Shown one piece after another: positions 1,891 through 41,942 of a stretch of 57,934 bases of DNA. The position numbers and the translations under genes were made by a program. The notes under the pieces were generated by a model. It did not search any database. It saw only the letters and a program-made list of their open reading frames with translations, and was not told where the DNA came from. The first letter of the stretch is position 1. Each line of letters starts with the position of its first letter. Source of the stretch: Dehalococcoidia bacterium. GTDB taxonomy: Bacteria > Chloroflexota > Dehalococcoidia > GIF9 > UBA5629. The stretch spans positions 1 through 57,934 of the forward strand of contig JAQUQM010000002.1 in assembly GCA_028716085.1 (NCBI GenBank), read 5' to 3'.

Positions 1891-1927
1891 TATAAACAAC
1901 AAAATCTTGAAAAAAAGAGGGTGAGAA

Positions 1928-2323: not shown

Positions 2324-2342
2324 ACCCGGTATTGGAAGCTTG

Positions 2343-2380
2343 AAGCCCTGTACTTCGAAGTACAGGGCTTTTCTATTTCT
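2343..2380. terminator. Bidirectional rho-independent terminator between convergent genes
   Basis: Perfect palindrome aagccctgtact-tcga-agtacagggctt (2343-2370) followed by a T-rich tract. It sits between the stop of the + strand REC gene (2323) and the stop of the - strand acyl-CoA ligase gene (2373). Confidence 0.7.
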
Positions 2381-3968: not shown

Positions 3969-4016
3969 TTCAACTACCTCCTTCCTGTAATGATAAGAAC
4001 TGCTTTGCTACGCGGA

Positions 4017-4844: not shown

Positions 4845-4869
4845 AACACTTCCCCTTTCTAACCTGCGG

Positions 4870-6561: not shown

Positions 6562-6584
6562 AATTGACCTCCACCGGATGCGGT

Positions 6585-7103: not shown

Positions 7104-7161
7104 GAAAGAATTATAGCCAGCGGATGAGGTAATTGTCTATACGGCGCAGAGATAGGTGTGC

Positions 7162-8331: not shown

Positions 8332-8349
8332 ATTTGTGTACTTATATTA

Positions 8350-17657: not shown

Positions 17658-17676
17658 TACCGTTAATAAACATATT

Positions 17677-19518: not shown

Positions 19519-19534
19519 GGTTTAAAATATTGAT

Positions 19535-23578: not shown

Positions 23579-23584
23579 GGTCTG

Positions 23585-24382: not shown

Positions 24383-24383
24383 A

Positions 24384-25454
24384 CTAAAACACCGCCTTTT
24401 TCCTGGTGCGCAGAACATAGAGAAAAAACGGTACGCCGATGATGGCAGTAATGATGCCAACCGGTATCTCGGACGGCGCCATCATTGTCCTCGAAATTGT
24501 ATCTGCCGATATTAAAAAGATAGCTCCGGTCAGGGCAGATAAGGGGAGAAGAAGCCTGTAGTCCGGTCCAAAGAGTATACGTACCAGGTGAGGGACGATG
24601 ATACCGATAAAACCGATAATTCCACAGAAACATACGGCAGCGGCGGTAGCAACTGTAGCTGCGCATAGAATAATTAGCTTCACCTTTTCCGTGTTTATGC
24701 CGAGCTGTCGTGCCTGGTCGTCATCCAATTGCATGACATTGAGCGGTCGGGCATAAAGACAGATAATGACGATGCCCAGCAATATATAAGGTGTCATGAT
24801 GGATACCTGCCACCAATCAGCTAAAGAAAACGTACCGAGCAGCCAGAAAATGATTCCATGAGCTCTATCTCCGGATATGATAATGAGATAGGAGGTTATA
24901 GCTGCCAGGAAAGCTCCGATAGCTACTCCTGCAAGGATTAAGGTGGTCATGGGAAGGGTAGTCCCCACACGTGCAATGGAATACACTGCAAATACGCACA
25001 GAACAGCCCCGCTAAAGGATAGGATAGGTATAAGAGCTACAGGTATGTTGTACGGAAGTATAAAACCTACAACTGCTCCCAGTGCTGCTCCCTGTGATAT
25101 CCCGGTCAGGTAAGGATCAGCCAGCGGATTACGAAACATACCCTGGTATGCGGCTCCTGCGGTACTTAGCGCTGCTCCCACCAGGCCGGCCATAATTATC
25201 CGCGGGAGACGGACATGAAATACGATAGTCGAAATGCTGGCGGAATCGACATTGTCACTACTAATGAAGGGAAGAAGCAAATTTAAAATAGATTGAAATG
25301 GAATATGAGTGCTGCCGAAAGCTGAGGAAATGAGAACGACACCGACAAGTGCAAAGCTAAAGCCTGCTATGGCAATCAAGCCTTTATGAAAGCGTAGTCG
25401 ATACTGCCTCAACTCTTTTGCCGGAATGCTTTGGTTGGCTATTTTAAGTTCCAT
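24384..25454 (-). CDS. btuC: FecCD-family ABC permease (BtuC-like)
   Basis: 356 aa, about 10 TM segments, with RLPRIIMAGLVGAALS and the C-terminal GIITAIIGVPFFLYVL motif typical of FecCD/BtuC permeases. Confidence 0.85.
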   Translation of the reverse strand: MELKIANQSIPAKELRQYRLRFHKGLIAIAGFSFALVGVVLISSAFGSTHIPFQSILNLLLPFISSDNVDSASISTIVFHVRLPRIIMAGLVGAALSTAGAAYQGMFRNPLADPYLTGISQGAALGAVVGFILPYNIPVALIPILSFSGAVLCVFAVYSIARVGTTLPMTTLILAGVAIGAFLAAITSYLIIISGDRAHGIIFWLLGTFSLADWWQVSIMTPYILLGIVIICLYARPLNVMQLDDDQARQLGINTEKVKLIILCAATVATAAAVCFCGIIGFIGIIVPHLVRILFGPDYRLLLPLSALTGAIFLISADTISRTMMAPSEIPVGIITAIIGVPFFLYVLRTRKKAVF

Positions 25455-25491
25455 AATTCAGATACATTGTTACCGGTCACACGGCAAATAA

Positions 25492-26427
25492 TTATTTATC
25501 TGTATTGGATGTCTCCGGATATATAAAATTAGACAGTTGTTCCAGGCCTTGGACTGCCCTGGGGCCAAACCGGTAAACGAGATCGCCGTCCACTTGATAT
25601 ACACATTTATTTTTAATGGCACTGGTGTTTTTCAGACGTGCATCAGTATTTAAATAATCCCACAAGGGATTTTCCGGTTTACCCATGCTTACGGGCGCAA
25701 TTATTACCTGGGGATCCCTGGCTAGAATTGTTTCAAGGCTGATCGCACCATGTCCCGCGATATCCTGTGCAATATTGGTACCTCCGCTGGTGCGGATCAT
25801 ATCGTCAATAAGTGTGCCATTTCCGGCAGCCATCAATGGGTCATGCCATATCAGCAGTAAAACCCGTCTGCGTTGTTCAACAGGAATGACCTTACTTTTG
25901 TTTGAGACAGCATCAACTCTGTTTTGAAGAGCATTGTTCAACTCAGTAGCCTGGTCTTTGTTACCGGTCAATTCCCCAACCAGCATTATGTCTTTCAATA
26001 TGGCGCTTAACGTTTTTGGATTCAAAGTAAGTACGTTAAAACCAATTTTCTCCAATGCCGGTGTAACACTCTTGCTGTGGATTTCTGCGGCCAGTATCAA
26101 GTCAGGTTGAAGTGCAATAGTTTTTTCGATATCAATAGTGCTGAAACCGCCTACATGTATTTTGCTGTCAGCCTCGGGCGGGTAATTGCAGTAATCCGTC
26201 ACGCCTAAAAGACTATCCTGCAGTTTGAGGGCGTATACAATTTCTGTATTGCTCGGGGCTAAGGAAACGATTTTTTTCGGAGTGGAGGCCGTTCTCACCG
26301 GTGTATCTATATCATCATATTGTAATACCGGTTCATTTTTGATACCGCACGATAGGAAAATAACCGATAATACCACCAATATCAGTGTGCATGGAATGAT
26401 CCCTGATCTTCTCATCAACATAATCAC
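25492..26427 (-). CDS. btuF: Periplasmic/lipoprotein-type substrate-binding protein (class III, BtuF-like corrinoid binding)
   Basis: 311 aa; signal with lipobox-like LSCG; KIVSLAPSNTEIVYAL and PDLILA motifs of the Peripla_BP_2 family. First gene after the B12 riboswitch. The true start could be an internal Met at 26421 or 26415. Confidence 0.8.
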   Translation of the reverse strand: MIMLMRRSGIIPCTLILVVLSVIFLSCGIKNEPVLQYDDIDTPVRTASTPKKIVSLAPSNTEIVYALKLQDSLLGVTDYCNYPPEADSKIHVGGFSTIDIEKTIALQPDLILAAEIHSKSVTPALEKIGFNVLTLNPKTLSAILKDIMLVGELTGNKDQATELNNALQNRVDAVSNKSKVIPVEQRRRVLLLIWHDPLMAAGNGTLIDDMIRTSGGTNIAQDIAGHGAISLETILARDPQVIIAPVSMGKPENPLWDYLNTDARLKNTSAIKNKCVYQVDGDLVYRFGPRAVQGLEQLSNFIYPETSNTDK

Positions 26428-26763: not shown

Positions 26764-29700
26764 ATGAATCAAAAACGGATACCACTCTGGCTGGTTGTAG
26801 GTATTATCCTCTTTATCATCGTCCTGATAGCTCTATGGCTCCGCATTGCCCTTCCGTATAAGCAGGTATTTGTCGGTGAGTGGGTGAAGATGACGGGTAT
26901 AGATGCCTATTATTACATGCGGCTGGTGGATAACCTGGTACGACATTTTCCGAACCTGACACAATTCGATCCGTATTATCAATATCCCGGAGGCGTCACT
27001 ACAGGAGGCGCGCCCAATTTCTTTGCCTATTTTATGGCCGCAATCATTTGGTTGCTGGGGCTCGGCTCACCTGACCAGCATATAGTCGATGTAATCGCGG
27101 TATACATACCACCACTCATGGCAGCGCTGACTATTATTCTTGTGTTTTTTATTGGTAAAACCATTGCCGGCAAATGGATGGGTTTATTGGCCGCCGGTCT
27201 GCTGGCAATAATGCCCGGTGAATTTCTAAATCGATCCATGCTTGGTTATACGGACCATCATATAGCCGAAGTCCTTTTTTCAACGATATTCATGCTGTTT
27301 GTGTTTCTGTCTTTAAAGAGTGGGGAGGGAGCTAGTTTTGACGCCATAAAACTGAAACAATGGAAGCTGCTGAACAAACCAATCATATATGGAGCACTGG
27401 CAGGTTTCGGATTGGCTCTGTACACGCTGACATGGGCCGGCGCGTTATTATTCGTACTTGTAGTACTTGTATTTTTAATAATTCAAGTAATAGTTGACCA
27501 TTTGAGGGGGCGAAAAAGCGATTATATAGCATTAGCACTAGGGCCGGCTTTCATAGTTGCAATATTAGGATATATACCATGGGCCAGGGATCTGCGGACA
27601 ATGTTATCGCTGGTCATGGGGTTGGCAGTGACAGTAGTACTGGTGGTACTGTCCGATTATATGCTTAACCGTGGTTACCGACGTTTCTATTACCCTGTAG
27701 CCGTTTTTGCCATGGGTGTAACAGGTGCCCTGGCTTTATATTTGGTCTACCCTGAATTATTGATTTCAACGACGTACCAGATCGCAAGCCTTTTATTCAC
27801 CTGGGGTACGAGCACGACGGTAATGGAGATGCAACCGCTCTTGATGTATCAGGGCGATTTATCTTTTGTTGTGGCGTTTGGTAATTATACGACTGCGTTT
27901 ATATTTTGTTTTGCAGGTTTGGGATTATTAATTTATCAGGCCTTGAGGCGAGATAATCCTGACAGAATTCTCCTGATTATATGGAGTGTAATTGTGCTTT
28001 TGTCCACACTGTCGATGAGGAGATTCGCATATTACTTTGCAGTCAATGTAGCATTGCTTACGGGATATCTGACCTGGATGGTGTTGCAGTTCGCTATGAC
28101 CAGAAAAGAAGAAGCTAAGCCTGCAGCTTTGCCGGTCAAACCAACTGCGAAAAATAGAAAAAAGATAGTAACAAAGCCGCCACCTTCTTCGTCGAAAAAG
28201 CCCTTGATTGTAGCGTTACTTATTTTATTGATTTTACTGCTTGTATACTACCCTAATTTCGGGCCGTTGCCGGACGGGCAGAGACCCTCTATCGATCTGG
28301 CTTCCCGGCCTTTATTTGCACCATCCAATGCATGGTGTGAATCCCTTGATTGGTTGCGCAGTAATTCTCCGGATCCTTTGAGTAGTGCAGATGCATACTA
28401 TGCATATTATCGGACAGGTACGGAATCACAGAATTTCAGCTACACAAAGACCGAGTACGGAGTGTTGAACTGGTGGGACTACGGCTACTGGGTTACGCGA
28501 ATCGGGCGCAGGTTACCTGCATCGAACCCGGGAACAGGTGAATACGGTGAAGCGCGATATTATACTGCTCAGGATGAGTTCAATGCGGGCAGAGCAATCA
28601 ACAACTATGGCACACGTTACGTGATTGTAGATTATGAAATCGCATCTTACAACAGTAAATTTCATGCGCTGGCTTCATTGAGTGGAGAGAATTATTCCCG
28701 ATATTTCGATCTCTTTGTCCAGAAACAGGGTACAAATTATCAGCCTGTTGTTCTCTTCTTCCCCGAGTACTACAGGAGTATGGTTGTCAGATTATATAAC
28801 TTCGATGGCAAAGCTGTGATTCCGCAAACCGTCACGGTAATTAATACTGCAGATAGGGTGGGGCCTCAGGGCAAAATTTACAAAGAGATAATGGACATCA
28901 AGGAATTCGCTACATTTACTGAGGCACAGGAGTTTATCAATAGCAAGAAATCGGATGATTATTTGATTGTTAGTGACGATCCTTTAAAAAGCCCTGTACC
29001 GCTTGCAGAATTAACGCAATATTCACTTCAATATAGCTCCAGTCAAAAGAATAGTTATTTATTCAAACCTATCTCAGATATTAAAATATTCGAATATCGT
29101 AAATTAGCCATACCGATCACTGGAGATTGGGATGGTAGAGGCATAACCAAACTGGGTGAGTGGCAACCTGATGAGAGCTGTTTCCTTCTTGATGTCGACG
29201 GGGACGGTATTTGGAATCCTGATAAAGGTGATGCAAAGCTTGGCCCCTTCGGTTTTTCTACCGATATTCCACTAATTGGTGATTGGACCGGGGATGGAAA
29301 AGATAAGATAGGTGTGTGGAGGCCTTCTGAACTATGTTTTTATCTGGATAGCAACGGTGACGGTGTATGGAATCCCGAAAAGGGAGATAGAAAATTAGGG
29401 CCTTACGGATTGTCGTTTAATAACACACCCGTAGTTGGTGATTGGAATGGCGATGGAAAAGATGAAATTGGTGTATGGGGGAATTCAAGGATTGCGAATA
29501 AAATGACGTTCTATCTGAACATAGCGGGTGATGGAAACTGGAATTCAGAGAACGGGAATTTGATCATAGATCCCTTTGGCAAAAAGGGGAATGTTCCTGT
29601 GATAGGCGATTGGAATAATGACGGAAAAGATGAAATAGGTGTCTGGGACCCTGTCAGCCGGGACTTCTATCTAGACGCAATGGGCAAAGGGGTATGGGAT

Positions 29701-29919
29701 GAAAGCAAGGGGGTCACCAAAATCGGTCCTTTTGGAGAAACCACCTTTACGCCTTTGAGCGGGCGCTGGAACGATAAGAACGGGACAAAATTGGGCATGT
29801 GGGATCCACAAACGGGCGGTTATTACCTGGATGTATCGGGTGAGCGCACATGGGGCGACAATTCATCCATCATTAAATTGAATCCGTTTACGCGGACAAA
29901 TCAGAATAGCTCGCCTTAG
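26764..29919 (+). CDS. STT3/AglB-type oligosaccharyltransferase (GT66-like) with C-terminal FG-GAP/VCBS-like repeat module
   Basis: 1051 aa; about 13 TM N-terminal half. First-loop motif TGIDAYYYMRLVDN, then LGYTDHHIAEV. Literal WWDYGYW motif at nt 28471-28485 in the soluble domain. A C-terminal 265 aa repeat module is absent from the downstream paralog. Confidence 0.85.
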   Translation: MNQKRIPLWLVVGIILFIIVLIALWLRIALPYKQVFVGEWVKMTGIDAYYYMRLVDNLVRHFPNLTQFDPYYQYPGGVTTGGAPNFFAYFMAAIIWLLGLGSPDQHIVDVIAVYIPPLMAALTIILVFFIGKTIAGKWMGLLAAGLLAIMPGEFLNRSMLGYTDHHIAEVLFSTIFMLFVFLSLKSGEGASFDAIKLKQWKLLNKPIIYGALAGFGLALYTLTWAGALLFVLVVLVFLIIQVIVDHLRGRKSDYIALALGPAFIVAILGYIPWARDLRTMLSLVMGLAVTVVLVVLSDYMLNRGYRRFYYPVAVFAMGVTGALALYLVYPELLISTTYQIASLLFTWGTSTTVMEMQPLLMYQGDLSFVVAFGNYTTAFIFCFAGLGLLIYQALRRDNPDRILLIIWSVIVLLSTLSMRRFAYYFAVNVALLTGYLTWMVLQFAMTRKEEAKPAALPVKPTAKNRKKIVTKPPPSSSKKPLIVALLILLILLLVYYPNFGPLPDGQRPSIDLASRPLFAPSNAWCESLDWLRSNSPDPLSSADAYYAYYRTGTESQNFSYTKTEYGVLNWWDYGYWVTRIGRRLPASNPGTGEYGEARYYTAQDEFNAGRAINNYGTRYVIVDYEIASYNSKFHALASLSGENYSRYFDLFVQKQGTNYQPVVLFFPEYYRSMVVRLYNFDGKAVIPQTVTVINTADRVGPQGKIYKEIMDIKEFATFTEAQEFINSKKSDDYLIVSDDPLKSPVPLAELTQYSLQYSSSQKNSYLFKPISDIKIFEYRKLAIPITGDWDGRGITKLGEWQPDESCFLLDVDGDGIWNPDKGDAKLGPFGFSTDIPLIGDWTGDGKDKIGVWRPSELCFYLDSNGDGVWNPEKGDRKLGPYGLSFNNTPVVGDWNGDGKDEIGVWGNSRIANKMTFYLNIAGDGNWNSENGNLIIDPFGKKGNVPVIGDWNNDGKDEIGVWDPVSRDFYLDAMGKGVWDESKGVTKIGPFGETTFTPLSGRWNDKNGTKLGMWDPQTGGYYLDVSGERTWGDNSSIIKLNPFTRTNQNSSP
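29122..29916 (+). repeat. Five intragenic tandem repeats (52-56 codons each) of an FG-GAP/VCBS-like unit
   Basis: Units start at 29122, 29278, 29437, 29605 and 29761. Consensus is GDW(x)GDGKD(E/K)IGVW-x(5-10)-FYLD-x2-GDG-x-WN-x3-G-x3-GPFG. The last unit is degenerate (GRWNDKNGTKLGMW...YYLDVSGERTW). Confidence 0.6.
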
Positions 29920-29927
29920 TAACCATT

Positions 29928-32264
29928 ATGAAACAAAAAAGAACAAAGTCGTGGCTGATTGCAGGCGCTATCCTCTTTGCGATCATCCTAATTACATTGT
30001 GGCTCAGGATTGTACTTCCATATCCGCAGGTATTTGTCGATAATTGGGTAAAACTTACGGGCGTGGATGCATATTATTATATGCGGCTGGTGGATAATCT
30101 GGTGCGCCATTTTCCCAATCTGACACAGTTCGATCCGTATTTTCAGTATCCCGGAGGGTGGGATCCAGGCGCCGCCCCAAATTTCTTTGCGTATTTTATG
30201 GGCGCCATTATTTGGATGCTGGGATTAGGAACGACGGATCAACACACTGTAGATGTGATTGCGGTATACATACCGCCGGTATTGGCTGCGCTGACAGTGA
30301 TTGCAGTATTTTTTATTGGCAAGACGATCGGTGGCAAGTGGATGGGATTATTGGCAGCCGGCCTACTGGCTATCATACCAGGCGAGTTTCTCAACCGTTC
30401 CCTGCTGGGCAATACCGATCATCATGTTGCCGAGGTGCTATTCTCATCAGTCGCAATGATGTTCGTTTTTATGTTTATTCACAGCAGTGAAAGGAAAAGC
30501 TTTGCCGGGTTGAGAGAAGAAGGATCATGGAAAGAAACCAAGCTTTTGTTGTATGGGATTCTGGGTGGAGTATTCCTTGGCACCTACCTTCTCACATGGG
30601 CAGGGGCATTATTATTCGTATTGATATTTTTCGTATTTATCGTGGTACAGGCTGTAATAGAACACATGTGCGGCAGATCCAACGATTACCTGGGGTTACT
30701 TGGATTATGTATATTTGGGACGGCATTTGTAGTATATCTGCCCTGGGCAAGAAGTACTTATGTTACGTTATCCTTGATGATAGCAATATTTACATCAATA
30801 TTGCTGGTTATTGTATCTCGCAGCATGCTTAAACTCCGCGTGAAAAGCCTTTATTATCCAGTCGTTATTATCAGCCTGGGAATTATTGGCTGCCTCGGTA
30901 TTTATCTTGTTAATGACAAACTGCTGATCCAATTGATTTCGCGTGTTTTCAGTATATTCATCTGGAGTACAGATACTACTGTTTTTGAGATGCAACCGCT
31001 GTTGTGGTACGGCAAGGAATTCACTTTTTCTGTTGTAATGCAGAATTATGCTACCGGTTTTATCCTGAGTATGTTGGCTCTGGTAATCTTGATATACCGT
31101 GTCATAAAAAATAACAGAGTTGTTGATGTGCTGCTTGCCGTCTGGAGCGTGATTATTCTACTGGCGGCGCTCAGCATGAAAAGGTTTGCCTATTATTTCG
31201 ACCTTAATGTAGCTTTGTTGACAGGTTACCTGTCGTGGATTGTATTAAGCCTGGTTCTAACCGGAAAAGTTCTGCCTGATAAAGATGAGCAAAAAGAAAA
31301 ACAAGATATTGGCACCCTAGGGAAAAAGGCCATAAAACAGAAATCAACACATAAATTCAGTAAAACATATATGTATGTGGCATTACTGATGATATTTCTC
31401 ATTGTTTACTATCCTGACATCGGCCCTTTACCGGGTGGAAGGAAACCGGCGATTGATGTTGCCAGCAAACCTGCGTTCTTACCTGCCGATTCATGGTGTG
31501 AATCCCTGGACTGGCTTAGATTGAATACGCCGGAACCACTTGGAGACGCAGATGACTACTACGGCTTATATCAAGCGCCTCATGAATCCGGGGGATTCAG
31601 TTATCCTTCAACGGCATACGGTGTGCTGTCCTGGTGGGACTACGGGTATCTGATTACAAGGATAGGGAGGAGAATACCGCATTCGAATCCCGGTATAGGA
31701 ACCTATGGCGAAGCGAACTATTTTATTGCCCAGGATCAAGAATCGTCCGGCAAGCTCATGCATGATTGGGGTATTAAATACGTTGTCATAAGCTATGATA
31801 TGACATCGTTTAAAGAGAAATTCTACGCCATGGCGCTTTACGGTGGTCATGAACGAGAGGATTACTATGATTTTTATCTGAAGAAAACAGATGGCGGTTA
31901 TGATGCAGTATTATTCTTTTATCCCGATTATTACCGCACTATGGCAGTAAGATTATTTAACTTTAATGGAGAAGAAGTGGTCCCCGCAGCTACTATGGTT
32001 GTGGATTATTCTATCGGGACGGATAAATCTGGAAAAAGATATAAAGTCATTAATGAGATTAAAAAGTTCGATTATTATTCCGAAGCTATGGATTTTATCG
32101 AACAGCACCAGGGCAATTACCGGATAATTGGAACAGACCCGGGCAACAGCCCTGTCCCGCTTGAAAAACTGAGTCATTATGAATTGGTCTACGGCTCCAG
32201 TCAACAAGCAGAAGTCGGCACGGTTACCACGGCCGGGATAAAGATTTTTGAGTATACAGAATAA
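29928..32264 (+). CDS. STT3/AglB-type oligosaccharyltransferase paralog (GT66-like), short form
   Basis: 778 aa and collinear with the upstream paralog (same N-terminal TGVDAYYYMRLVDNLVRHFPNLTQFDPY block and LGNTDHHVAEV). WWDYGYL at nt 31632-31646. It ends (IKIFEYTE*) exactly where the paralog's repeat extension begins. Starts 8 nt after the upstream stop. Confidence 0.85.
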   Translation: MKQKRTKSWLIAGAILFAIILITLWLRIVLPYPQVFVDNWVKLTGVDAYYYMRLVDNLVRHFPNLTQFDPYFQYPGGWDPGAAPNFFAYFMGAIIWMLGLGTTDQHTVDVIAVYIPPVLAALTVIAVFFIGKTIGGKWMGLLAAGLLAIIPGEFLNRSLLGNTDHHVAEVLFSSVAMMFVFMFIHSSERKSFAGLREEGSWKETKLLLYGILGGVFLGTYLLTWAGALLFVLIFFVFIVVQAVIEHMCGRSNDYLGLLGLCIFGTAFVVYLPWARSTYVTLSLMIAIFTSILLVIVSRSMLKLRVKSLYYPVVIISLGIIGCLGIYLVNDKLLIQLISRVFSIFIWSTDTTVFEMQPLLWYGKEFTFSVVMQNYATGFILSMLALVILIYRVIKNNRVVDVLLAVWSVIILLAALSMKRFAYYFDLNVALLTGYLSWIVLSLVLTGKVLPDKDEQKEKQDIGTLGKKAIKQKSTHKFSKTYMYVALLMIFLIVYYPDIGPLPGGRKPAIDVASKPAFLPADSWCESLDWLRLNTPEPLGDADDYYGLYQAPHESGGFSYPSTAYGVLSWWDYGYLITRIGRRIPHSNPGIGTYGEANYFIAQDQESSGKLMHDWGIKYVVISYDMTSFKEKFYAMALYGGHEREDYYDFYLKKTDGGYDAVLFFYPDYYRTMAVRLFNFNGEEVVPAATMVVDYSIGTDKSGKRYKVINEIKKFDYYSEAMDFIEQHQGNYRIIGTDPGNSPVPLEKLSHYELVYGSSQQAEVGTVTTAGIKIFEYTE

Positions 32265-32280
32265 AGAGGCCTCCAATTTT

Positions 32281-33390
32281 ATGAAATCGGCAATAATCGC
32301 GATGACATTATATCAAACACAGGGGGCGGATCGTCTAACATGGCAGCAAGCTGAAGCGTTATCTCGAAAAGGCGATGAAGTATCAATTTTCACTTTTTCT
32401 ACTAGATTTAATCAGTTGCAGAATATAAAACTTATTAAGATGGGCATGCCCGCAGGATTTTATAGTGAAAAAATCTTTCGCATTTGCCTCCCTGTTAATT
32501 TCATTAAGGCTTATCAATGGGTACCGAGATTAAAGGGCTTCGATATTGTTTATGCTCATGGATATCCCGCCAGCTGGTTTGCATACCTGTCCAAAATATT
32601 CTTCGGTGTTAAATACATTCATTATTTTTATCATATCAATACACCGGGATTTTTCCCCGGCCTTTTCCCCAGGATTTATACAACAATTCAGCTTTTTTTC
32701 GAAAAAATAACTCTCAGTAAAGCTGATGGCGCAATCACAATCAGTGAATTTGCACAGCAGCAACTAACAAAATTTGCCAAGTTGGAGAGTAAAGTAATAT
32801 ATCCTCAAATAGATTGCATCAGGTTCCAACCTGATATAGACAGAAGAAAAATCAGGGATAGATATGATATAGGAGATGCCCCGCTGGTTCTGTTTGTCGG
32901 CGGCATATCACCACAAAAGTGCATTCATTTGCTGATCAATGCTTTTAAAATCTTAAAAATAGATATTCCGAATGCAAGGCTATTAATAGTCGGCAAGTTC
33001 CTCTTTGACAGTTATACTGACTTGTTGAAGCAGATGTCTGATGATTCAGTTGTATTTTCGGGAGAATTGGCTGATGAGGATATACCATACTGCTATGCGG
33101 CCTGTGATGTTTATGTATCGGCAAGTAGATGGGAGGGTTTCAATCTCCCGCTTGCGGAAGCACAGGCTTGCGGAAGGCCGGTTGTAGCCTTTAATATAGG
33201 GCCACATCCTGAAGTTATGATCGATGAAGTCACAGGATTTTTAGTCCCTGAGCTCGATTTACCAGCTATGGCTGAAAAAATTGAACTGCTGCTATGTGAT
33301 GAAAAGCTGAAAAATGCTATGGGGAAAGCTGCTCGGGGGTTTATTACAGAGAAATATTCTGAAAACCAATATCTCAATATTGAATTCTGA
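32281..33390 (+). CDS. Glycosyltransferase family 4 (GT-B, group 1)
   Basis: C-terminal EX7E motif (WEGFNLPLAEAQACGRPVVA) and VGG...K nucleotide-sugar binding region. I prefer the ATG at 32281 (RBS aaagagg 11 nt upstream). The tracked ORF starts at a TTG at 32248 that overlaps the OST gene. Confidence 0.85.
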   Translation: MKSAIIAMTLYQTQGADRLTWQQAEALSRKGDEVSIFTFSTRFNQLQNIKLIKMGMPAGFYSEKIFRICLPVNFIKAYQWVPRLKGFDIVYAHGYPASWFAYLSKIFFGVKYIHYFYHINTPGFFPGLFPRIYTTIQLFFEKITLSKADGAITISEFAQQQLTKFAKLESKVIYPQIDCIRFQPDIDRRKIRDRYDIGDAPLVLFVGGISPQKCIHLLINAFKILKIDIPNARLLIVGKFLFDSYTDLLKQMSDDSVVFSGELADEDIPYCYAACDVYVSASRWEGFNLPLAEAQACGRPVVAFNIGPHPEVMIDEVTGFLVPELDLPAMAEKIELLLCDEKLKNAMGKAARGFITEKYSENQYLNIEF

Positions 33391-33574
33391 TTATTAGAAA
33401 TAGTATCATGCCCAATATCACGGTCCCAAATCGATAGGATACTGGCAGTGCAAGCTGCTCTTAAAGTCCTGTTTCACTTTGGCATACTGATGTGCGGCAA
33501 TTTGATTTTGTTATAATTATACGCCGTATAGTTTATCCTGACGTTTGAAGATTAAGGTTTACGAAGATATTTGT

Positions 33575-34540
33575 ATGCTGCAAAAACTTGCACCGAAGAG
33601 TAAAGGTTCCTTACCCGCCGGTATACTCAGGATTGTGATCAAACCCTTTATTGGAACAGGAATAGGTAGATTTTCCCTTGTAAATAAGATATATCAGTTC
33701 TTCGCCAAGGTTTTTATCATTCCACAGGAAAACCAGCTTGTTACTATTAACGGATACAAGATGTATATCAATTTAGATCGTGAAAAAGGGCTTGACGGCA
33801 TCTCCCAGGAACTTATATTTCACGGTACATATGAGAAATATGCAACGTCTTTGTTCCAGCAGTATGTTAAAAGGGGTATGACTGTGATCACTATAGGGGC
33901 AAATATCGGATATTTCGTGCTGCTGTTCTCATCATTGGTGGGGAAGGATGGCAAGGTATTTGCGTTCGAGCCGGCACCTCAGAACTTCAACTTACTAGTT
34001 CGAAATATTGAACTGAACGGATATGATAACATCGTTGCACTGCAGAAGGCAGTTTCCGATAGGTCAGGAGCAGGGATATTGTATATAGATAAATCTGATC
34101 CGGCGGGGCACAGTCTTTTTCAGGAAGCTACAAACCAGGTAACCGGCGGTAAAGCGGAAACACTTTCTGTTGACATGGTAAGCCTCGACGAATATTTTAA
34201 GAATAATAATATCAGTGCAGATATTATTCAGATGGATATACAAGGTGCAGAACCTCTTGCTGTCAAGGGAATGGAGAATTTAATCTCCAGTAGTAAGGAA
34301 GTGAAGATTTTTACCGAATTCTGGCCGTTTGGATTGGAAAAGAGTGGATTTTCAGCGGAGCAATATTGGACTCAATTGAATCAATTGGGTTTTAAATATA
34401 TTTATCTCATTAATGAACGACACCAAAACCTAGAACCGACGAGCTTAGTGGAAGCAGTTAAACTTTGCAGGGGAAATGTAATTACACCTCCCAGCGCAGT
34501 CAATTTGTTATGTACTGCGACTCCACTGGATTGTATTTAA
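33575..34540 (+). CDS. FkbM-family SAM-dependent methyltransferase
   Basis: Methyltransf_21-type motifs VITIGANIGYF, VFAFEPAPQNF and IQMDIQGAE. ATG at 33575 preferred over the TTG at 33545. Confidence 0.8.
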   Translation: MLQKLAPKSKGSLPAGILRIVIKPFIGTGIGRFSLVNKIYQFFAKVFIIPQENQLVTINGYKMYINLDREKGLDGISQELIFHGTYEKYATSLFQQYVKRGMTVITIGANIGYFVLLFSSLVGKDGKVFAFEPAPQNFNLLVRNIELNGYDNIVALQKAVSDRSGAGILYIDKSDPAGHSLFQEATNQVTGGKAETLSVDMVSLDEYFKNNNISADIIQMDIQGAEPLAVKGMENLISSSKEVKIFTEFWPFGLEKSGFSAEQYWTQLNQLGFKYIYLINERHQNLEPTSLVEAVKLCRGNVITPPSAVNLLCTATPLDCI

Positions 34541-34634
34541 TTTGTGAATATTGCTACGATGATAAACATAGTGTTAGTTATGTCTTAACGATTCTTAATA
34601 TAAAACAGGTGGAAAGTTACAGGATGATTTCGTC

Positions 34635-35573
34635 ATGAAAACGCAAGGTTCGTTTCCCTTTCGGATATTTAAAAGCGCTGTTAAGCCGTTTATCGGGACA
34701 GGGATAGGGAGGTTCCGCCCTATTGGGGCATTCTATAATTATCTTGCCGGTAATATAACTGTGCCGGAGGAAGAGAGTACCATTTGTGTAAACGGGTACC
34801 GGATGCATACACATTCCGACAAGAAGGGAATTGAGGGTATTGCACATGAGTTGCTCTTAACTGGCACATATGAAGAATATACCTCTTTTGTATTTAAGCA
34901 ATATGTGAAAAAAGGTATGACAGTACTGGATATTGGCGCTAATATCGGATATTTCACTCTTTTAGCAGCCAGCCTGGTCGGGGAAGGCGGCAAAGTATAT
35001 GCATTTGAACCGGAACCTAAAAACTATAATTTACTTGTAAAAAATGTGGAGCTTAACAGCTATAACAATATCGTAGCGGTGCCCAAAGCTGTATCAGATA
35101 GAGTAGATGAACTTCAGCTGTTTATTGACAGGGTAGAATCGGGAGGGCATAGCCTGTTTAAAGAATCTGCACGAAGAGGAAATATAAACTCCGTAGAATC
35201 AGTGACGGTCAGCACCACCAGTATTGATGAATTTTTCGGTGACAACCAGTCGATTATTGATGTTATTAAAATTGATATTGAGGGTGCGGAAGTGCTGGCT
35301 TTAAAAGGAATGCAAAATACCTTAAGTAGAAATAGGGATGTTAAGTTATTTACGGAATTTACTCCTCATAAACTTAGAAATGCTGGAAATTCCGCCGAGG
35401 AGTACTGGGCGTATCTGGTAAAATCAGGATTCAATCATATCTATATCATTAATAGCCACAAAAAGGTACTGGAAAATGCCACTCTTGATGCGATATTACG
35501 TTATTGCCGGGGAGGAATGTTTAAACAAGCAGGACATGTGAATTTACTATGTGCAAAAATCTCCCTGGATTAG
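34635..35573 (+). CDS. FkbM-family SAM-dependent methyltransferase (tandem paralog)
   Basis: Collinear with the upstream gene (VKPFIGTGIGRF, VLDIGANIGYF, VYAFEPEPKNY, IKIDIEGAE, VNLLC). Confidence 0.8.
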   Translation: MKTQGSFPFRIFKSAVKPFIGTGIGRFRPIGAFYNYLAGNITVPEEESTICVNGYRMHTHSDKKGIEGIAHELLLTGTYEEYTSFVFKQYVKKGMTVLDIGANIGYFTLLAASLVGEGGKVYAFEPEPKNYNLLVKNVELNSYNNIVAVPKAVSDRVDELQLFIDRVESGGHSLFKESARRGNINSVESVTVSTTSIDEFFGDNQSIIDVIKIDIEGAEVLALKGMQNTLSRNRDVKLFTEFTPHKLRNAGNSAEEYWAYLVKSGFNHIYIINSHKKVLENATLDAILRYCRGGMFKQAGHVNLLCAKISLD

Positions 35574-35621
35574 TACATATACAGATAATAAGATTAATCG
35601 GTAAATATTCGATAATTAGTT

Positions 35622-36875
35622 ATGTATTTTAAAAACGATCGTGACCATCCTATAAAAACACCTTTTGCCTGCCCATTCCCGTGGACATCGCTTTCATTAA
35701 ATTATGACGGTGGAATATCCTTTTGTTGCCTGCATTACCCATTTGCTCATATCAGTGAGCTTTCAGAGAAATCGGTAGATTCTATATGGAACGGCAGCGT
35801 AGCACAGGATTTACGACGGAGGTGGAAAGAGGGAAGGCTTAAAGGCACACCCTGCGGAAATTGCCCTGGATTAAGTGAGTTTAAAAGATATGCTTACCCT
35901 GTGAATGATCTGGAAAATATGCCTGAAGGACCCTACAAAGAGAATGTTCAACTCAATATCTCTGAGATTAAGCAGAGCGAAACCAGATTGAAATCACTGC
36001 CTATCAGCATTTATTATACGCCGAGTGTTCTATGCAATATAGATTGCATACATTGCTGCCAGCCGAAAATCGGCAAAAATAATTATACGTACCTTGATAC
36101 GGAAGAACTGATTAAATTCTACCGGATTCTGGGCATGAAATCGGTCAGTCATGCTATATCAGGCGGGGAACCCTTATATTTGAAGCAGGTATCCAGACTG
36201 ATTAGTGAATTTAGCCCTGAACAAAAAGCCGCTTCCGAATTGATATTATTCACCAACGCACTTCTCATAAAAGAGAAGTTTGACCAGATTGCCGGATTCA
36301 GAAAATATGATTTTGAGATCAGTATTGCGTCATCGAATAAAGAGATATATGAGTATATTCATAGTGGCGCCAGCTATGACATGTTAATCGAGAATCTTGA
36401 ATTCCTTATTCAACGCAAAGCCGAAGGAATTGACTTATCTGCAAATCGAATAATGGTACTGATGAAATCAAATTTCAATGACCTGAACAATGTTTTTGAG
36501 TTTGCATCAAGGTATAAATTGGATGATACCTGGATACGCGCTATTGATGCTGCATATCATAAATACAAAATAATGCCGGATGAAAACATTTTCATGTTAC
36601 CCTATTTACTTGGCGGCATACCCAACTGGCAGGATACAATGGAGAAAGCATCACAAGCCGCTGAATCAAGCAATAACCGTGTAGCCTATGATCACATACA
36701 ATATCTGCAGAAAAATGTCTCCGGGTCGCGAATTGTAAATTTGTATCGTTCGATAATTAATTGGCTGCGCTGGTTTTTCACTATAAGCATCCTGCGATTA
36801 TGGCGGGAACCAGTGCAAAGGGCAAAAATTGCTTCTCTGAGACATCGTTTATCTACATTATTAAGCAGAAAATAG
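35622..36875 (+). CDS. Radical SAM enzyme with an N-terminal SPASM-like cysteine module (apparently permuted domain order)
   Basis: CxxxCxxC radical SAM motif CNIDCIHCC at about aa 138-146 and a GGEP glycine-rich motif. The N-terminal 90 aa read ACPFPWTSLSLNYDGGISFCC...IWNG...PCGNCPG, matching the C-terminal SPASM/twitch modules of the two other radical SAM proteins in this window. The C-terminus has no Cys cluster. Confidence 0.78.
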   Translation: MYFKNDRDHPIKTPFACPFPWTSLSLNYDGGISFCCLHYPFAHISELSEKSVDSIWNGSVAQDLRRRWKEGRLKGTPCGNCPGLSEFKRYAYPVNDLENMPEGPYKENVQLNISEIKQSETRLKSLPISIYYTPSVLCNIDCIHCCQPKIGKNNYTYLDTEELIKFYRILGMKSVSHAISGGEPLYLKQVSRLISEFSPEQKAASELILFTNALLIKEKFDQIAGFRKYDFEISIASSNKEIYEYIHSGASYDMLIENLEFLIQRKAEGIDLSANRIMVLMKSNFNDLNNVFEFASRYKLDDTWIRAIDAAYHKYKIMPDENIFMLPYLLGGIPNWQDTMEKASQAAESSNNRVAYDHIQYLQKNVSGSRIVNLYRSIINWLRWFFTISILRLWREPVQRAKIASLRHRLSTLLSRK

Positions 36876-36922
36876 TATAAGTCTTTAGTAGTAACGTTTA
36901 TGGTTAACAAAGCAATTTATCT

Positions 36923-38077
36923 ATGAGTATCGGTAGATCGATCATTAATATTCTGGTAGCAATCTTCGTTTCGTTATACTCGATAGACTTCTTAAGCCGC
37001 TTTATATTCTGTCTACAGGATAGAGGTATGCGCTTGTTCAGCAATAAAATGTTCAGGAAATTTTATTCCCTGGAGCCTTATGAACAAAGAGATCTTAATA
37101 ATAGGACCATATTTACGCTTGTTCCATGTTTTGAAGCTACATTTGCGGAGATGATCCAATATGAAGAAAAAGGCGGACACTGGTTCAGGGCCGGTCGATT
37201 AAAAAAATGGCTTAATGAGAATGAGATTAATATTAATAACGCCGGAATTAATATAAATTCCCACGGCTTTCGGGGATACGAACTTCCACAAGCAAAGGAT
37301 GCTGGTATCGTGCGCATTATGGCTTTGGGAGATAGCTGCACTTTCGGTACAGTTGAATCAATGTCTTATCCCCGGGCTATGGAACGTAAGCTTAACTCCA
37401 ATGGTATTAAAGCCGAGGTTATTAATGCCGGCGTGGAGAAATATGGAATCAGGCATCTATTGAAGAGACAAGAGTATTATCTTGGATTTAAACCCGATAT
37501 TGCTACGATTTATACTGGCTGGATCGGAGCCAACTTTTTTGGCGACGATTTCGCAGGAACTCTCGATGTTTTCAATAACAGCTATTGGCTGGCAGCGTTA
37601 AACTCCAAATTTAGAAAATTGCGCGGCGTTTCGAATTGTGAAGAACCAAAGAAAACCAATGGTAAATTTTATAAAAAAGTAAACACGAATTATGGATCAA
37701 CATATTATATGGACCAAATATGGCTGCTAGCTCAGGGGTTAATGCAAAACAATGTAAAAGTTGTGTTATTTACCTTGCCTTCATGGTTTGATCCCCTTAA
37801 TGAAGCGGATGCAGATATGCTGAAATTCGGTAACCTGCCACCGTTTTCAGGCAATGCGTACATTTTTGGCTATCGTGTTTATGAGTACAATAACCGACTT
37901 CGCGATTTATCGGCCAAGCATGAAATTCCTTTAATAGATCTGGAAAGATATATAGACAACACTTATCACGATAAGAAGCAATATTTTTGGGATGCATGCC
38001 ATCTCAATCCGGAAGTACAGGTAGAAGTCGGTGAATTTATTGCGGCTGAATTAATGAGAACGGGGCTGATAGGGTAG
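36923..38077 (+). CDS. SGNH/GDSL-family hydrolase (esterase or acyltransferase-like), N-terminal membrane anchor
   Basis: N-terminal TM IINILVAIFVSLYSIDF; block I IMALGDSCTFG (GDS); block V WDACHLN (DxxH). Confidence 0.7.
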   Translation: MSIGRSIINILVAIFVSLYSIDFLSRFIFCLQDRGMRLFSNKMFRKFYSLEPYEQRDLNNRTIFTLVPCFEATFAEMIQYEEKGGHWFRAGRLKKWLNENEININNAGININSHGFRGYELPQAKDAGIVRIMALGDSCTFGTVESMSYPRAMERKLNSNGIKAEVINAGVEKYGIRHLLKRQEYYLGFKPDIATIYTGWIGANFFGDDFAGTLDVFNNSYWLAALNSKFRKLRGVSNCEEPKKTNGKFYKKVNTNYGSTYYMDQIWLLAQGLMQNNVKVVLFTLPSWFDPLNEADADMLKFGNLPPFSGNAYIFGYRVYEYNNRLRDLSAKHEIPLIDLERYIDNTYHDKKQYFWDACHLNPEVQVEVGEFIAAELMRTGLIG

Positions 38078-38127
38078 CGCTGGCGATAATAATCATATTA
38101 GTGGATACTTGATCCAGGCTGAACTGT

Positions 38128-39699
38128 TTAGATAAATTTCCTCAGTAGTTTCTTAATTGGCTCTATATTTACTCCGATAGATTTTTCAATATTTAGTAAA
38201 ATTGCAATATCTTCGGCATCAAAGCTGCGCGTCAATAAAATGATAATTCCGTATATGGCGAAGTAAAAAACAAAAACCAGGGGCAATATCCACCATGTAA
38301 TGGTAATAAATTGGCGAATGACAAATTGAAATAGTAGCGCCAGAACGACAGATACGATGACAGGTTTGAGCAGGTTTTTACTGAAAGGTTGAATTTTGGT
38401 GGAAATATACAATCTCACAGATATTATGAGATTTAAAACTGCCAGAGATATTGCCGAAGCTGTTGCGGCACCAACAGGGCCTGCAATGGGAATCAACGTG
38501 ACACACAGAGAGATATTTAATAGAGCCGAGATAATACCTGCCCACATGATTAATTTGGAATTTCCCGAGGCGAGGAATATGCATGATCCCAATCCCAGTA
38601 AATTCATAATCATAAAACCACTGGCTAAAATGCGAAGCACATCGGAAGCAGGGCCATAGGCATAAACTTCACCGAACAAAACGTTGAGTACCGCATCCGG
38701 GAACAAGAACATTACCAGCCATAGAGGCAAAGTCAATGATACAAGCCACTTGGTTGAAATAATATAAGAGCGCTTCACTTCGGCAGTCAAACCCTGGGCA
38801 AACAGATTGGCTATGACAGGTATATAAATAAGCATAAATGAAGCCAGTGGCACGGTGATGAAATATGCCAGCGGATAAGCCGCATTATATAAACCCACCA
38901 CATCTGGTGACTTGAAATGGCCCAAGATCATCGTGTCGGCATTAAAAATGAGAATGGATACTATGGCGGTTACTGAGATAGGAAGTGAAAATACGATTAA
39001 GTTTTTTAAAGCGTCAATATCAAACATGTTGATTTTAAAAACTGCCAGGCCGGGCAGTTTTATTAATGTGTAAATTAGTAAAAAGCTGAATGTCAATGTA
39101 ATGGCAGCCAGGTAAGCATAGAAGAAAAACTGGAAAACCATATTCAACATAACCATACCAATCAGCAGAACCAGAAACGAGGCATTAAGCATAATCGATT
39201 GAAAGAGTGCCTGGGGCTCCATTTTATTAAAGCCGCGGAAAACGGCTGCCATAATATTTATCATGGTTAAAAAAGGAAGACCTATCGCGAATATTCTAAG
39301 TACCGGAGACAGCTCGGCGGAATGAAAAATATTTATGGCGATGATATCCGCAAGAACGAATAACAATAGACCGGCAATAATACTGGTGATAATGCTTATT
39401 TGAAATGTTGATGCAATGGTCTTCCCAATTTCGCGCTCAGCGGACTTGCCCCGGTGAAAAGCAATATATCTCGTGCTTCCATCTTGAAGTCCCAGGCAAG
39501 ACAATACCATGGCAAAATTCAGCACTACTAATGCCAATGAAAAGATTCCGTAATTAGCTTCCAACCCATATCGTGCAATGATAAGCCTGGCGAAAAATTG
39601 CAGTACCAGTCCCAGATACATTCCGATTGTGCCGATACCCATACCGCGGAATATCTGCTGCAATGATTCATTGAGCCGGCTGGAATTATCTGTGCTCAT
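38128..39699 (-). CDS. Polysaccharide/oligosaccharide flippase (MOP superfamily, Wzx-like)
   Basis: 523 aa, about 14 TM helices, with the N-terminal FRGMGIGTIGMYLGLVLQFFARLIIARYG pattern typical of polysaccharide biosynthesis (Polysacc_synt) proteins. Confidence 0.8.
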   Translation of the reverse strand: MSTDNSSRLNESLQQIFRGMGIGTIGMYLGLVLQFFARLIIARYGLEANYGIFSLALVVLNFAMVLSCLGLQDGSTRYIAFHRGKSAEREIGKTIASTFQISIITSIIAGLLLFVLADIIAINIFHSAELSPVLRIFAIGLPFLTMINIMAAVFRGFNKMEPQALFQSIMLNASFLVLLIGMVMLNMVFQFFFYAYLAAITLTFSFLLIYTLIKLPGLAVFKINMFDIDALKNLIVFSLPISVTAIVSILIFNADTMILGHFKSPDVVGLYNAAYPLAYFITVPLASFMLIYIPVIANLFAQGLTAEVKRSYIISTKWLVSLTLPLWLVMFLFPDAVLNVLFGEVYAYGPASDVLRILASGFMIMNLLGLGSCIFLASGNSKLIMWAGIISALLNISLCVTLIPIAGPVGAATASAISLAVLNLIISVRLYISTKIQPFSKNLLKPVIVSVVLALLFQFVIRQFITITWWILPLVFVFYFAIYGIIILLTRSFDAEDIAILLNIEKSIGVNIEPIKKLLRKFI

Positions 39700-39836
39700 C
39701 TCGCCTCAGGCATTAATAGTACAGAAGTTCCGACATCCGGTAAAGCCGATGGAAAGCATACTAAAAGCCGGAACACGGAATAATCTCAGGTTTTTGCGAG
39801 GTATTAATTGAAGATGATGAAAATTTAACTATCACC

Positions 39837-40895
39837 TTATTTTCTAGAGCTGGTCATTCTGGTAATAATAACATTTTCGCTGGGATAGTTGGGTGCGTCC
39901 CAGGGGAATACTTCGCCTTTAAGGCATCTCTGCCATCGCGAGAGGTCCTCATCCACCATAACCTCAATAAGGCGGTCAAACTTTGTTTGCGGCTGCCAAT
40001 TCAGCACTGTTTTTGCTTTGTGATAATCACCCTGAAGAAGATTAACATCCACCGGTCTAAAAAATGTTTTATCAACCGTAACATATTTATCAGGGGCCAA
40101 CCCAAGTCTTGCGAAAGTTTTTTCCACAAATTCCCTGACCGTGTGTGTTTCATCAGTTGCAATAACAAAATCATCGGGTTTTTTCTGCTGCATCATCAGC
40201 CACATAGCCTGTACGTATTCGGGCGCATAGCCCCAATCTCTTTTTGCTTCCAAGTTGCCGAGCCTTAGCTCTTTCTCGAGGCCAAGTGCAATTTTGGCTG
40301 CGCAATTGGTTATTTTTCGCGTTACGAACTCGAGTCCCCTGATTGGAGATTCATGGTTGAAAAGAATGCCGCTGCAGGCAAATATGCCATGGGTTTCACG
40401 GTACATCCTGGTGATCCAATGGGCATAGAGTTTTGCTGCGGCATAAGGGCTGGCAGGCTTGAAGTGCGTATCTTCGGTTTGTTGAGCGGCATCTCCATTG
40501 CCGTAAAGCTCGCTGGTAGATGCCTGGTAAAACCTTATTTTGGGATTAATCTGGCGTACAGCTTCGAGGATCCTGGCAACGCCCAATCCCGTTATAGTCC
40601 CGGAAGCTACGGGTTGTTCAAATGAAGCTCCTACAAAACTCTGTGCCGCAAGATTATAGATTTCATCGGGTTGGCACATTTCAATAGCTTCATAAATAGA
40701 GGACGAGTCGATTAAATCAGCCGGTATAAGGAACATTTTGTCAAAGATGCCAAGGTATAAAAGTCGCCAGAAATTGGGAGTCGACAGGCGTCTGAAGGTG
40801 CCATAGACCGAATATCCTTTTTCTAACAGGAATTTGGCAAGGTAAGCCCCGTCTTGCCCGGTTACGCCTGTTATTATTGCCTTTTTAGCCATCAA
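39837..40895 (-). CDS. gmd: GDP-mannose 4,6-dehydratase family (extended SDR)
   Basis: ITGVTGQDGAYLAKFLLEKGY Rossmann motif, ASTSELYG, SPYAAAKLYAHW (YxxxK) and FNHESPIRG; 352 aa. Confidence 0.85.
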   Translation of the reverse strand: MMAKKAIITGVTGQDGAYLAKFLLEKGYSVYGTFRRLSTPNFWRLLYLGIFDKMFLIPADLIDSSSIYEAIEMCQPDEIYNLAAQSFVGASFEQPVASGTITGLGVARILEAVRQINPKIRFYQASTSELYGNGDAAQQTEDTHFKPASPYAAAKLYAHWITRMYRETHGIFACSGILFNHESPIRGLEFVTRKITNCAAKIALGLEKELRLGNLEAKRDWGYAPEYVQAMWLMMQQKKPDDFVIATDETHTVREFVEKTFARLGLAPDKYVTVDKTFFRPVDVNLLQGDYHKAKTVLNWQPQTKFDRLIEVMVDEDLSRWQRCLKGEVFPWDAPNYPSENVIITRMTSSRK

Positions 40896-40922
40896 TTATG
40901 ATTCTCAAGTATATTCGAAGCA

Positions 40923-41942
40923 TTATTTTGATATATAGTTATAGCCATCCCAGGGTAAAGCCACACCTTTCAACCAGCTTTCCCACCTTTTTACATCTTC
41001 GTGGACCATTATCTCTACCAGACGTTCAAATTTTACTTCGGGCTGCCAGCCCAGTTTGGTCTTTGCCCTGGCGTAGTCTCCCTGCCAGAAATTCACATCA
41101 ACGGGCCTCAATAATTCTTTATTCACTTTAACGTACTTGGACCAATCCAGACCTACAATGCTGAAAGCCTGCTGGAGGAACTGCTTTACAGTATGCATTT
41201 CGTTGGTGGCAATAATATAGTCATCCGGTTCCTTTTGCTGCAGCATGCGCCACATAGCGTTAACATATTCAGGGGCATAACCCCAGTCCCTCTTAGCTTC
41301 AATATTTCCCATAGCCAATTCATTGTCCAATCCAAGTGAAATCCTAGCCACGGCGTTGGAGATTTTTCTTGTTACAAAATCCAGTCCTCTGAGCGGGGAT
41401 TCATGATTGAACATTATCCCGTTGCAAATAAAAATACCATAACCGGCGCGGTATATATTGGCTATCCAGTGTGCATAGAGCTTAGCTACGGCATACGGAT
41501 TGGCCGGATTAAAAGGCGTATCTTCAGTAAGAGGTTTTGTGTTACCCTGCCCGAAAAGCTCGATAGTGGAAGCCTGGTAAACTCTAATATCCTTGTTGAT
41601 GCTCCTGACTGCCTCCAGCAGCCTAGTCAGTCCCAGCCCTGTGATCTCCCCGTAGCCTACAGGGTGCTCAAATGATGCTCCCGGGAAACTCTGTGCCGCC
41701 AGATGGTAAATCTCATCAGGACGACTGACCCGGATCGTATCTATAAGAGAGGACGAATCATTGAGTTCTGCAGTGAGCAGATGAACCCTATTATGAACAT
41801 CGAGATACTGCAACCTCCAAAAATTGGGGGTGGATGAACGGCGGTAACTACCGTATACTGTGTAATCCTTATCCAACAGCAGCTTTGCCAGGTAGGCGCC
41901 GTCCTGGCCGGTGATACCGGTAATTAATGCCCGTTTAGACAC
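40923..41942 (-). CDS. gmd: GDP-mannose 4,6-dehydratase family, diverged tandem paralog
   Basis: ITGITGQDGAYLAKLLLDKDY, ASTIELFG, NPYAVAKLYAHW and FNHESPLRG; 339 aa. Collinear with the neighbouring copy but clearly diverged. Confidence 0.85.
   Translation of the reverse strand: MSKRALITGITGQDGAYLAKLLLDKDYTVYGSYRRSSTPNFWRLQYLDVHNRVHLLTAELNDSSSLIDTIRVSRPDEIYHLAAQSFPGASFEHPVGYGEITGLGLTRLLEAVRSINKDIRVYQASTIELFGQGNTKPLTEDTPFNPANPYAVAKLYAHWIANIYRAGYGIFICNGIMFNHESPLRGLDFVTRKISNAVARISLGLDNELAMGNIEAKRDWGYAPEYVNAMWRMLQQKEPDDYIIATNEMHTVKQFLQQAFSIVGLDWSKYVKVNKELLRPVDVNFWQGDYARAKTKLGWQPEVKFERLVEIMVHEDVKRWESWLKGVALPWDGYNYISK

Follow-up and report, generated by a model that had tools for sequence, protein, structure and literature searches.

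The closest described counterparts of the protein in this study are archaeal AglB, the oligosaccharyltransferase (OST) solved from Archaeoglobus fulgidus, and UmbA4 of Streptomyces coelicolor, whose C-terminal six-bladed propeller was identified as a lectin for teichuronic acid by cryo-electron microscopy and mutagenesis (PMC13274773). The UmbA proteins include twelve families of five-bladed propeller lectin domains, and in UmbA4, where the ligand-contact residues Y551, N633 and W668 were tested, pocket positions are poorly conserved even between its own blades (PMC13274773). The gene reported here, open reading frame A (ORF A), joins an enzyme of the first kind to a domain resembling the second. 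It lies on a 57,934-nucleotide stretch of a Dehalococcoidia bacterium (contig JAQUQM010000002.1 of assembly GCA_028716085.1; the whole stretch is hereafter the window) and, as read from its sequence, encodes an N-oligosaccharyltransferase of the archaeal type (AglB/STT3) in a Dehalococcoidales-type bacterium; the enzyme is catalytically intact and carries a predicted beta-propeller at its C-terminus. It is followed by a tandem paralog, ORF B, and the pair is laid out as below.

26764..29919, + strand: ORF A, AglB/STT3-type OST with C-terminal propeller, 1051 amino acids (aa) plus stop
26764..28272, + strand: ORF A membrane domain, residues 1–503, with hydrophobic segments to ~503, alignable to 3waj
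28273..29097, + strand: ORF A extracytoplasmic globular domain, residues 504–778, Pfam AglB_core-like at 523–627, ending in IKIFEY
28471–28485, + strand: WWDYG motif of ORF A, residues 570–574, in the globular domain
29098..29916, + strand: predicted five-bladed FG-GAP/VCBS-like beta-propeller of ORF A, residues 779–1051 (FG-GAP_3, AlphaFold2, Foldseek)
29928..32264, + strand: ORF B, tandem AglB paralog without propeller, 778 aa, ending in IKIFEYTE with no remnant tail

The OST identity given to both paralogs in a preliminary description, made from the letters of the window, is well founded. Whole-protein scores against NCBIfam TIGR04154 ('oligosaccharyl transferase, archaeosortase A system-associated') are 597.3 bits for ORF A and 564.5 bits for ORF B, both exceeding the curated cutoff of 450, and Pfam STT3 and AglB_core domains were detected in both. 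The best solved-structure sequence matches of ORF A are A. fulgidus AglB 3waj and 5gmy (E 1.5e-46). When the full-length AlphaFold2 model of ORF A (predicted local distance difference test score (pLDDT) 83.9, predicted template modelling score (pTM) 0.80) was searched with Foldseek, AglB ranked above eukaryotic STT3 and this in turn above bacterial PglB, the AglB matches being 7e9s_A (the best, E 2e-29), 3wak and 5gmy_A (E up to 5e-27) with target template modelling (TM) scores of 0.67–0.68. In a 46-sequence homolog alignment that includes ORF B, residues D47, D164, H166, E355 (within TVME), D572, G574 and K632, the DK-motif lysine of the globular domain, are the same in every sequence, and the WWDYG residues W570, W571 and Y573 reach at least 90% conservation; D47, D164/H166 and E355 line up with A. 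fulgidus AglB. Both paralogs therefore look catalytically competent.

ORF A and ORF B share 52% identity across ~780 aa, and their alignment ends at IKIFEY, two residues before the end of ORF B. Past this point ORF A has a surplus of 273 aa (nucleotides 29098–29916). The preliminary description had seen that ORF A continues past IKIFEY, but its figures for the extension (265 aa, starting at 29122) are counted from the first GDW, which is residue 787. The five repeats of 52–56 aa that it reported are present, with GDW/GRW starts at residues 787, 839, 892, 948 and 1000 and periods of 52, 53, 56 and 52, and they correspond to the following blades.

29110..29265, + strand: blade 1, residues 783–834; first Asp loop degenerate (DWDGRGITK), second intact (DVDGDGIWN)
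29266..29424, + strand: blade 2, residues 835–887; loops DWTGDGKDK and DSNGDGVWN
29425..29592, + strand: blade 3, residues 888–943; canonical first loop DWNGDGKDE, 4-residue insertion past strand 2
29593..29748, + strand: blade 4, residues 944–995; canonical first loop DWNNDGKDE, degenerate second loop DAMGKGVWD
29749..29916, + strand: blade 5, residues 996–1051; both loops degenerate (RWNDKNGTK, DVSGERTWG), low-confidence tail

The motifs first listed for every repeat (GDWxGDGKDxIGVW, FYLDxxGDGxW and GPFG) hold for blades 1–4, with the exception of the first loop of blade 1, and are degenerate in blade 5. The calcium-type loop Dx[DN]x[DN]GxxD/E (DxNxDGxxE) is intact in blades 2–4 and degenerate in blades 1 and 5, a state that is identical at the same positions across every ortholog, and the second loop per blade, DxxGDGxW, is a family-wide feature. 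Judged from these loops, the propeller is probably stabilised by Ca2+ in blades 2–4. Pairwise identity between the repeats is 25–60% in protein and 39–62% in DNA, so that the repeats appear old and diverged; a recent tandem amplification of blades is ruled out by this low identity together with the same degenerate blades in every ortholog.

The suggested likeness to FG-GAP/VCBS repeats is supported by the extension taken alone, which scores 31.7 bits (E 2.4e-7) against Pfam FG-GAP_3 (PF13517, formerly VCBS), whose cutoff is 26.9; the score for the whole protein is 25.1. A precomputed PF13517 match is present on some homologs of the fusion. An NCBIfam scan of the extension gave no family match. 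Modelled with AlphaFold2 from an alignment of 24 homologous extensions, it reaches a pLDDT of 88.5 and a pTM of 0.88, and its 20 strands form five groups of four, the pLDDT falling below 50 at extension residues 270–273 in the tail of blade 5. The extension is thus confidently predicted to be a five-bladed beta-propeller folded as a single domain, and the beta-solenoid or disordered chain that the preliminary description had also considered is ruled out by the model. In the full-length model the last OST strand (773–778) is followed by ~4 residues and then the propeller strand 783–787. With so short a connector the propeller would be closely apposed to the OST domain rather than flexibly tethered, and from the topology of solved AglB homologs we infer that it sits outside the cytoplasmic membrane, beside the catalytic domain.

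The nearest solved relatives of the propeller are lectins. Its sole PDB sequence match (phmmer) is UmbA4 (9OEE chain A, E 3.9e-5), and the same chain is the top Foldseek match of the propeller model (9oee_A, E 5e-8, query TM 0.60, identity ~19%). Ranks two to four are three KICSTOR chains (ITFG2), and the fungal lectins PAL, PVL and AAL2 come next, at E values of 1e-4 to 1e-3 and a probability of 1.0. Further matches include a Tc-toxin propeller, CRTAC1 and integrin alpha; a search of a viral structure library gave no match under E 1e-3.

The same repeats are found on a large number of other proteins. When 1.84 billion representative proteins were searched with a profile built from the extension, 34,516 of them matched at E<=1e-3, of which 19,677 reached E<=1e-10. 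Across 80 species-level genome loci with this cassette, 78 have it on a protein other than AglB, mostly at the C-terminus or close to it, and two are AglB fusions. Its partners include proteases (S8, C1, M10, M12B and sedolisin), cell wall enzymes (N-acetylmuramoyl-L-alanine amidase (amidase_2), M23 and CHAP), and also GH16, beta-helix/NosD, PKD, CARDB and InlB B-repeat domains. A consensus of 74 cassette proteins shows five repeats, each closing in P..G.W, and the five-blade unit can therefore be regarded as a standard portable cassette. Pfam FG-GAP_3 detects only 17 of these 74 close family members at E<=1e-5, which makes them a divergent FG-GAP subfamily. In methanogenic archaea, Chromatiaceae, Streptomyces, Acidobacteria and Planctomycetes (loci L003–L080), secreted proteases and PKD proteins also end in this cassette of five or six repeats, for example in Methanospirillum purgamenti (L009, 3187–6939) and a member of Methanoregulaceae (L008, 350–1651). 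The internal repeats of these two examples and of protein P0042 are near-identical, pointing to homogenisation or amplification there in recent times.

The fusion itself is recurrent. The top 120 homologs of ORF A include 24 long-form clusters (90% identity level) of ~970–1075 aa, all of which carry five colinear GDW repeats after IK[IV]FE[YFC] at overall identities to ORF A from 87% down to 41%; within the extension, identity falls as low as 39% with the five blades still colinear. An exhaustive profile search, on which the fusion count is based, adds P0323 (40% identical and colinear) and the fragment P0251, for a total of ~26 clusters; a homolog search with the extension alone gave only short proteins and missed known fusions. 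Two proteins of 283 aa (P0121 and P0122) that might have been stand-alone propeller genes, or products of fission, turned out to be cut by contig ends; they lie beside glycan genes and are probably fusion members too. Members with a named source come from metagenome-assembled genomes (MAGs) of Chloroflexi, Chloroflexota or Dehalococcoidales and are recorded only as 'oligosaccharyl transferase'. In the literature on AglB or oligosaccharyltransferase with Dehalococcoidia, Chloroflexi, FG-GAP or S-layer, no description of the fusion was found, nor any paper on bacterial AglB or AglB-type N-glycosylation in Dehalococcoidia. The fusion therefore recurs within a single bacterial clade, where databases already list it, but few proteins with the cassette have it. 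The earlier remark that this is not a standard OST architecture thus stands as regards rarity and the lack of a published account, but the architecture is not unique, given the ~26 clusters recorded under a generic OST name.

Other additions occur among related Dehalococcoidia AglBs, namely P0094 (1334 aa), P0113 (1039 aa) and P0071, P0082, P0096 and P0106 (874–889 aa). In some of these the external domain contains a large insertion, for which there is a precomputed DUF4082 (PF13313) match, and others have a C-terminal extension of ~100 aa that is fn3-like by the look of its sequence. Modules seem to be gained preferentially at the external end in this OST family.

The long AglB occupies a constant slot in the window and in loci L081, L082/83 and L090, divergent from a BtuFCD and cobalamin-salvage operon and followed downstream by variable glycan-biosynthesis genes. 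Short AglBs (P0031, P0027) are found in the same slot. Several short forms end 6–10 residues past IKIFEY, mostly exactly 10 (6 in P0031), with 'KKDVIPLxGD' (e.g., KKDVIPLSGD), a stretch that makes up the first strand of the propeller in the long forms. This remnant is borne by P0020, P0021, P0026, P0027, P0034, P0035, P0037, P0038, P0040, P0043, P0045 and P0087, as well as by genes in loci L084 (10001–12370) and L085 (10001–12382). Long and short forms are interleaved in a crude neighbour-joining tree of the OST core, and this interleaving is the only feature of its topology that is used. The simplest reading of these sequences would be one ancient fusion from which the propeller was later cleanly truncated more than once, though the remnant strand may instead keep some role in the short forms. 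Because orthologs at the same locus do without the propeller, being truncated to its first strand, it is likely to be an accessory part rather than a part of catalysis.

Where the propeller is kept, it is conserved. Between ORF A and its 87%-identical ortholog in L090, the ratio of nonsynonymous to synonymous substitution rates (dN/dS) falls from 0.16 in the membrane domain to 0.10 in the globular domain and 0.096 in the propeller, which indicates that the propeller is under purifying selection and is as constrained as the catalytic parts. The proposal that the propeller separates the roles of the two paralogs has little support, since the tandem long and short pair is found only in the window and in one close relative (L090). 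Elsewhere the slot is occupied by just one AglB, either long or truncated, and in L001 and L002 no second AglB adjoins.

As the nearest relatives are lectins and the cassette sits on secreted and wall enzymes, we lean somewhat towards a propeller that serves as an extracytoplasmic lectin-like docking module, probably Ca2+-stabilised, on a catalytically intact OST. This agrees with the docking role put forward in the preliminary description. The propeller would bind a cell-envelope glycan or glycoprotein, the likeliest ligands being the N-glycan or S-layer glycoprotein that the OST helps to make, and binding would fix the OST to its substrate or to the envelope, or would keep acceptors that are already partly glycosylated close by for further sites. 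Such docking fits the envelope of Dehalococcoidales, in which an S-layer is present and peptidoglycan is absent (PMC10284905). A narrower version, in which the propeller recognises the N-glycan or S-layer glycan of the cell itself and the enzyme is a 'product-sensing' OST, is rather unlikely. If true, the OST would be tethered to its own glycoprotein lattice or would retain acceptors with some sites already glycosylated and modify further sites processively, the propeller would come and go together with the hypervariable glycan island, for instance under phage pressure, and the arrangement would be a mark of an archaeal-style N-glycosylated S-layer envelope in the peptidoglycan-free Dehalococcoidia.

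Several observations weigh against a lectin-like docking module. The structural matches are modest, with a TM of 0.60 to the six-bladed lectin and ~0.45–0.5 to the seven-bladed ones; FG-GAP_3 scores 25.1 bits on the whole of ORF A, slightly under its cutoff; repeated loss implies that the propeller is dispensable in some lineages; and in the ~8 loci examined no glycan-island gene was seen to track its presence or absence. To these can be added that FG-GAP propellers of integrins and of KICSTOR/ITFG2, both in the Foldseek list, bind proteins. The propeller might accordingly dock on the acceptor polypeptide (an S-layer or envelope protein) or on another AglB copy, in an oligomer; the many proteases that carry the cassette have proteins as their targets, and large surface proteins are encoded nearby. 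Such protein–protein docking nevertheless has a fairly small chance of being correct, as the one solved relative recognisable by sequence, which gives the best structural match as well, is a lectin shown to bind a glycopolymer, the cassette is also found on peptidoglycan hydrolases, GH16 and beta-helix enzymes acting on glycans, and no partner protein co-varied with the propeller in the loci examined.

A propeller that binds no ligand, acting as a Ca2+-binding spacer or stabiliser of the external domain or being carried as a neutral evolutionary passenger, would account for its clean loss in syntenic orthologs and for conservation that is highest in the core and calcium-type loops and not in obvious pocket residues. 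It is improbable in light of a dN/dS as low as that of the catalytic domains, five colinear blades kept across homologs 40–87% identical overall, and a family of 34,516 members that acts as a portable C-terminal module on secreted enzymes, as is typical of binding domains. That the fusion is an artefact, either of misassembly or of a missed stop or frameshift joining an AglB gene to a separate propeller gene, is scarcely credible, even though the window and most of its relatives are metagenome assemblies and one search returned the two seemingly stand-alone proteins of 283 aa. The same uninterrupted ORF occurs in at least 24 independent clusters or contigs from different studies, its junction is conserved (IKIFEY-xKxxIPxxGDW), and both 283-aa proteins come from genes truncated where their contigs stop.

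Downstream of the OST pair the window continues into genes for glycan biosynthesis, the start of which is the following feature.

32248..41942: start of the glycan-biosynthesis island adjoining the OST pair (Pfam scan)

This part encodes a GT4 glycosyltransferase, two FkbM methyltransferases, a radical SAM/SPASM protein, a GDSL hydrolase, a Wzx-type flippase and two genes of the sugar-nucleotide 4,6-dehydratase family (GDP_Man_Dehyd). The AglB genes head an island of ~30 kb in all (window ~26.7–57 kb), whose content is different in every related locus (L081–L085, L090). There are three radical SAM/SPASM genes in the island (35622–36875, 47887–48804 and 51409–52443), and the FkbM methyltransferases are tandem paralogs (33545–34540 and 34635–35573); together this set hints at an unusual sugar or peptide modification. 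In locus L086, downstream of the contig-cut AglB-propeller fragment P0122, a glycan island at 857–8547 encodes a UDP-sugar dehydrogenase, a GFO/MocA oxidoreductase-hexapeptide acetyltransferase, a DegT aminotransferase and a UDP-GlcNAc 2-epimerase. These genes look like those of the pathway to 2,3-diacetamido-mannuronic acid, and sugars of this class are what the UmbA4 propeller recognises; the resemblance may be a coincidence.

On the other side of the pair, 17115–26427 (- strand) holds a complete operon for cobalamin salvage and remodelling (CobU, CobS, CobT, CobA/BtuR, CobQ, CobD and CbiB, with a BtuFCD-type transporter), which lies divergently upstream of AglB in every related locus. A 739-aa He_PIG protein (12341–14560, - strand) is conserved beside the Cob operon in relatives. 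Two further large proteins are probably surface proteins and are candidate substrates of the OST. One, of 1805 aa (42176–47593, + strand), combines a signal peptide with Propeptide_C25, choice-of-anchor R and fn3 domains and contains 22 N-x-S/T sequons; the other, of 978 aa (9353–12289, - strand), has a sortilin/BNR-like propeller segment and ends in a hydrophobic anchor followed by basic residues, like a sorting signal. No archaeosortase or PGF-CTERM substrate was recognised in the window by NCBIfam.

If the docking reading is true, a lectin-like propeller covalently attached to the catalytic OST subunit would place an enzyme and a reader of glycan or envelope on one chain, and ORF A could show how recognition of substrate or product is added to an OST core. 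The compact five-bladed cassette, found as it is on many secreted enzymes, could also be of practical use as a glycan-binding scaffold. Some Dehalococcoidia respire organohalides, and the locus points to a large and apparently unstudied archaeal-type N-glycosylation system in this class.

Compared with known systems, each half of ORF A has a clear counterpart. Archaeal AglB (A. fulgidus AglB-L; 3WAJ, 5GMY, 7E9S) has the same membrane domain with D47, D164/H166 and E355 and the same external domain with WWDYG and a DK-type lysine, but ORF A adds the 273-aa propeller after the globular domain, and its host is apparently bacterial, as indicated by the Dehalococcoidales/Chloroflexota MAG labels on its homologs. 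The solved AglB, STT3 and PglB structures matched in this study are counterparts of the OST portion only, none of them having a C-terminal propeller. With Pfam FG-GAP_3 proteins and integrin alpha the propeller shares the DxNxDGxxD/E loop and the FG (GPFG) motif; the integrin-type propeller, however, has seven blades, whereas ORF A and all 24 long homologs have five. The fungal N-acetylglucosamine (GlcNAc) lectins PVL (2BWM), PAL (5MB4) and AAL2 (4TQM) have the same FG-GAP-type four-stranded blades and Ca-binding loops, but are seven-bladed, soluble and stand-alone, at an identity of 12–16%. UmbA4 shares the repeat type P..GD[WF][ND]GDG.D...V[WF] with the ORF A propeller and, as is predicted for ORF A, carries an extracellular propeller at the C-terminus of an enzyme-like protein, with calcium-type loops conserved across blades. 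It differs in having six blades on a trypsin-like toxin-targeting protein, as against five on a membrane OST, where each blade carries a second DxxGDGxW loop. The OST and the propeller are each of a known kind, and their fusion is present in the databases under a generic name; the function given here is deduced by comparison, and the combination is unusual rather than revolutionary.

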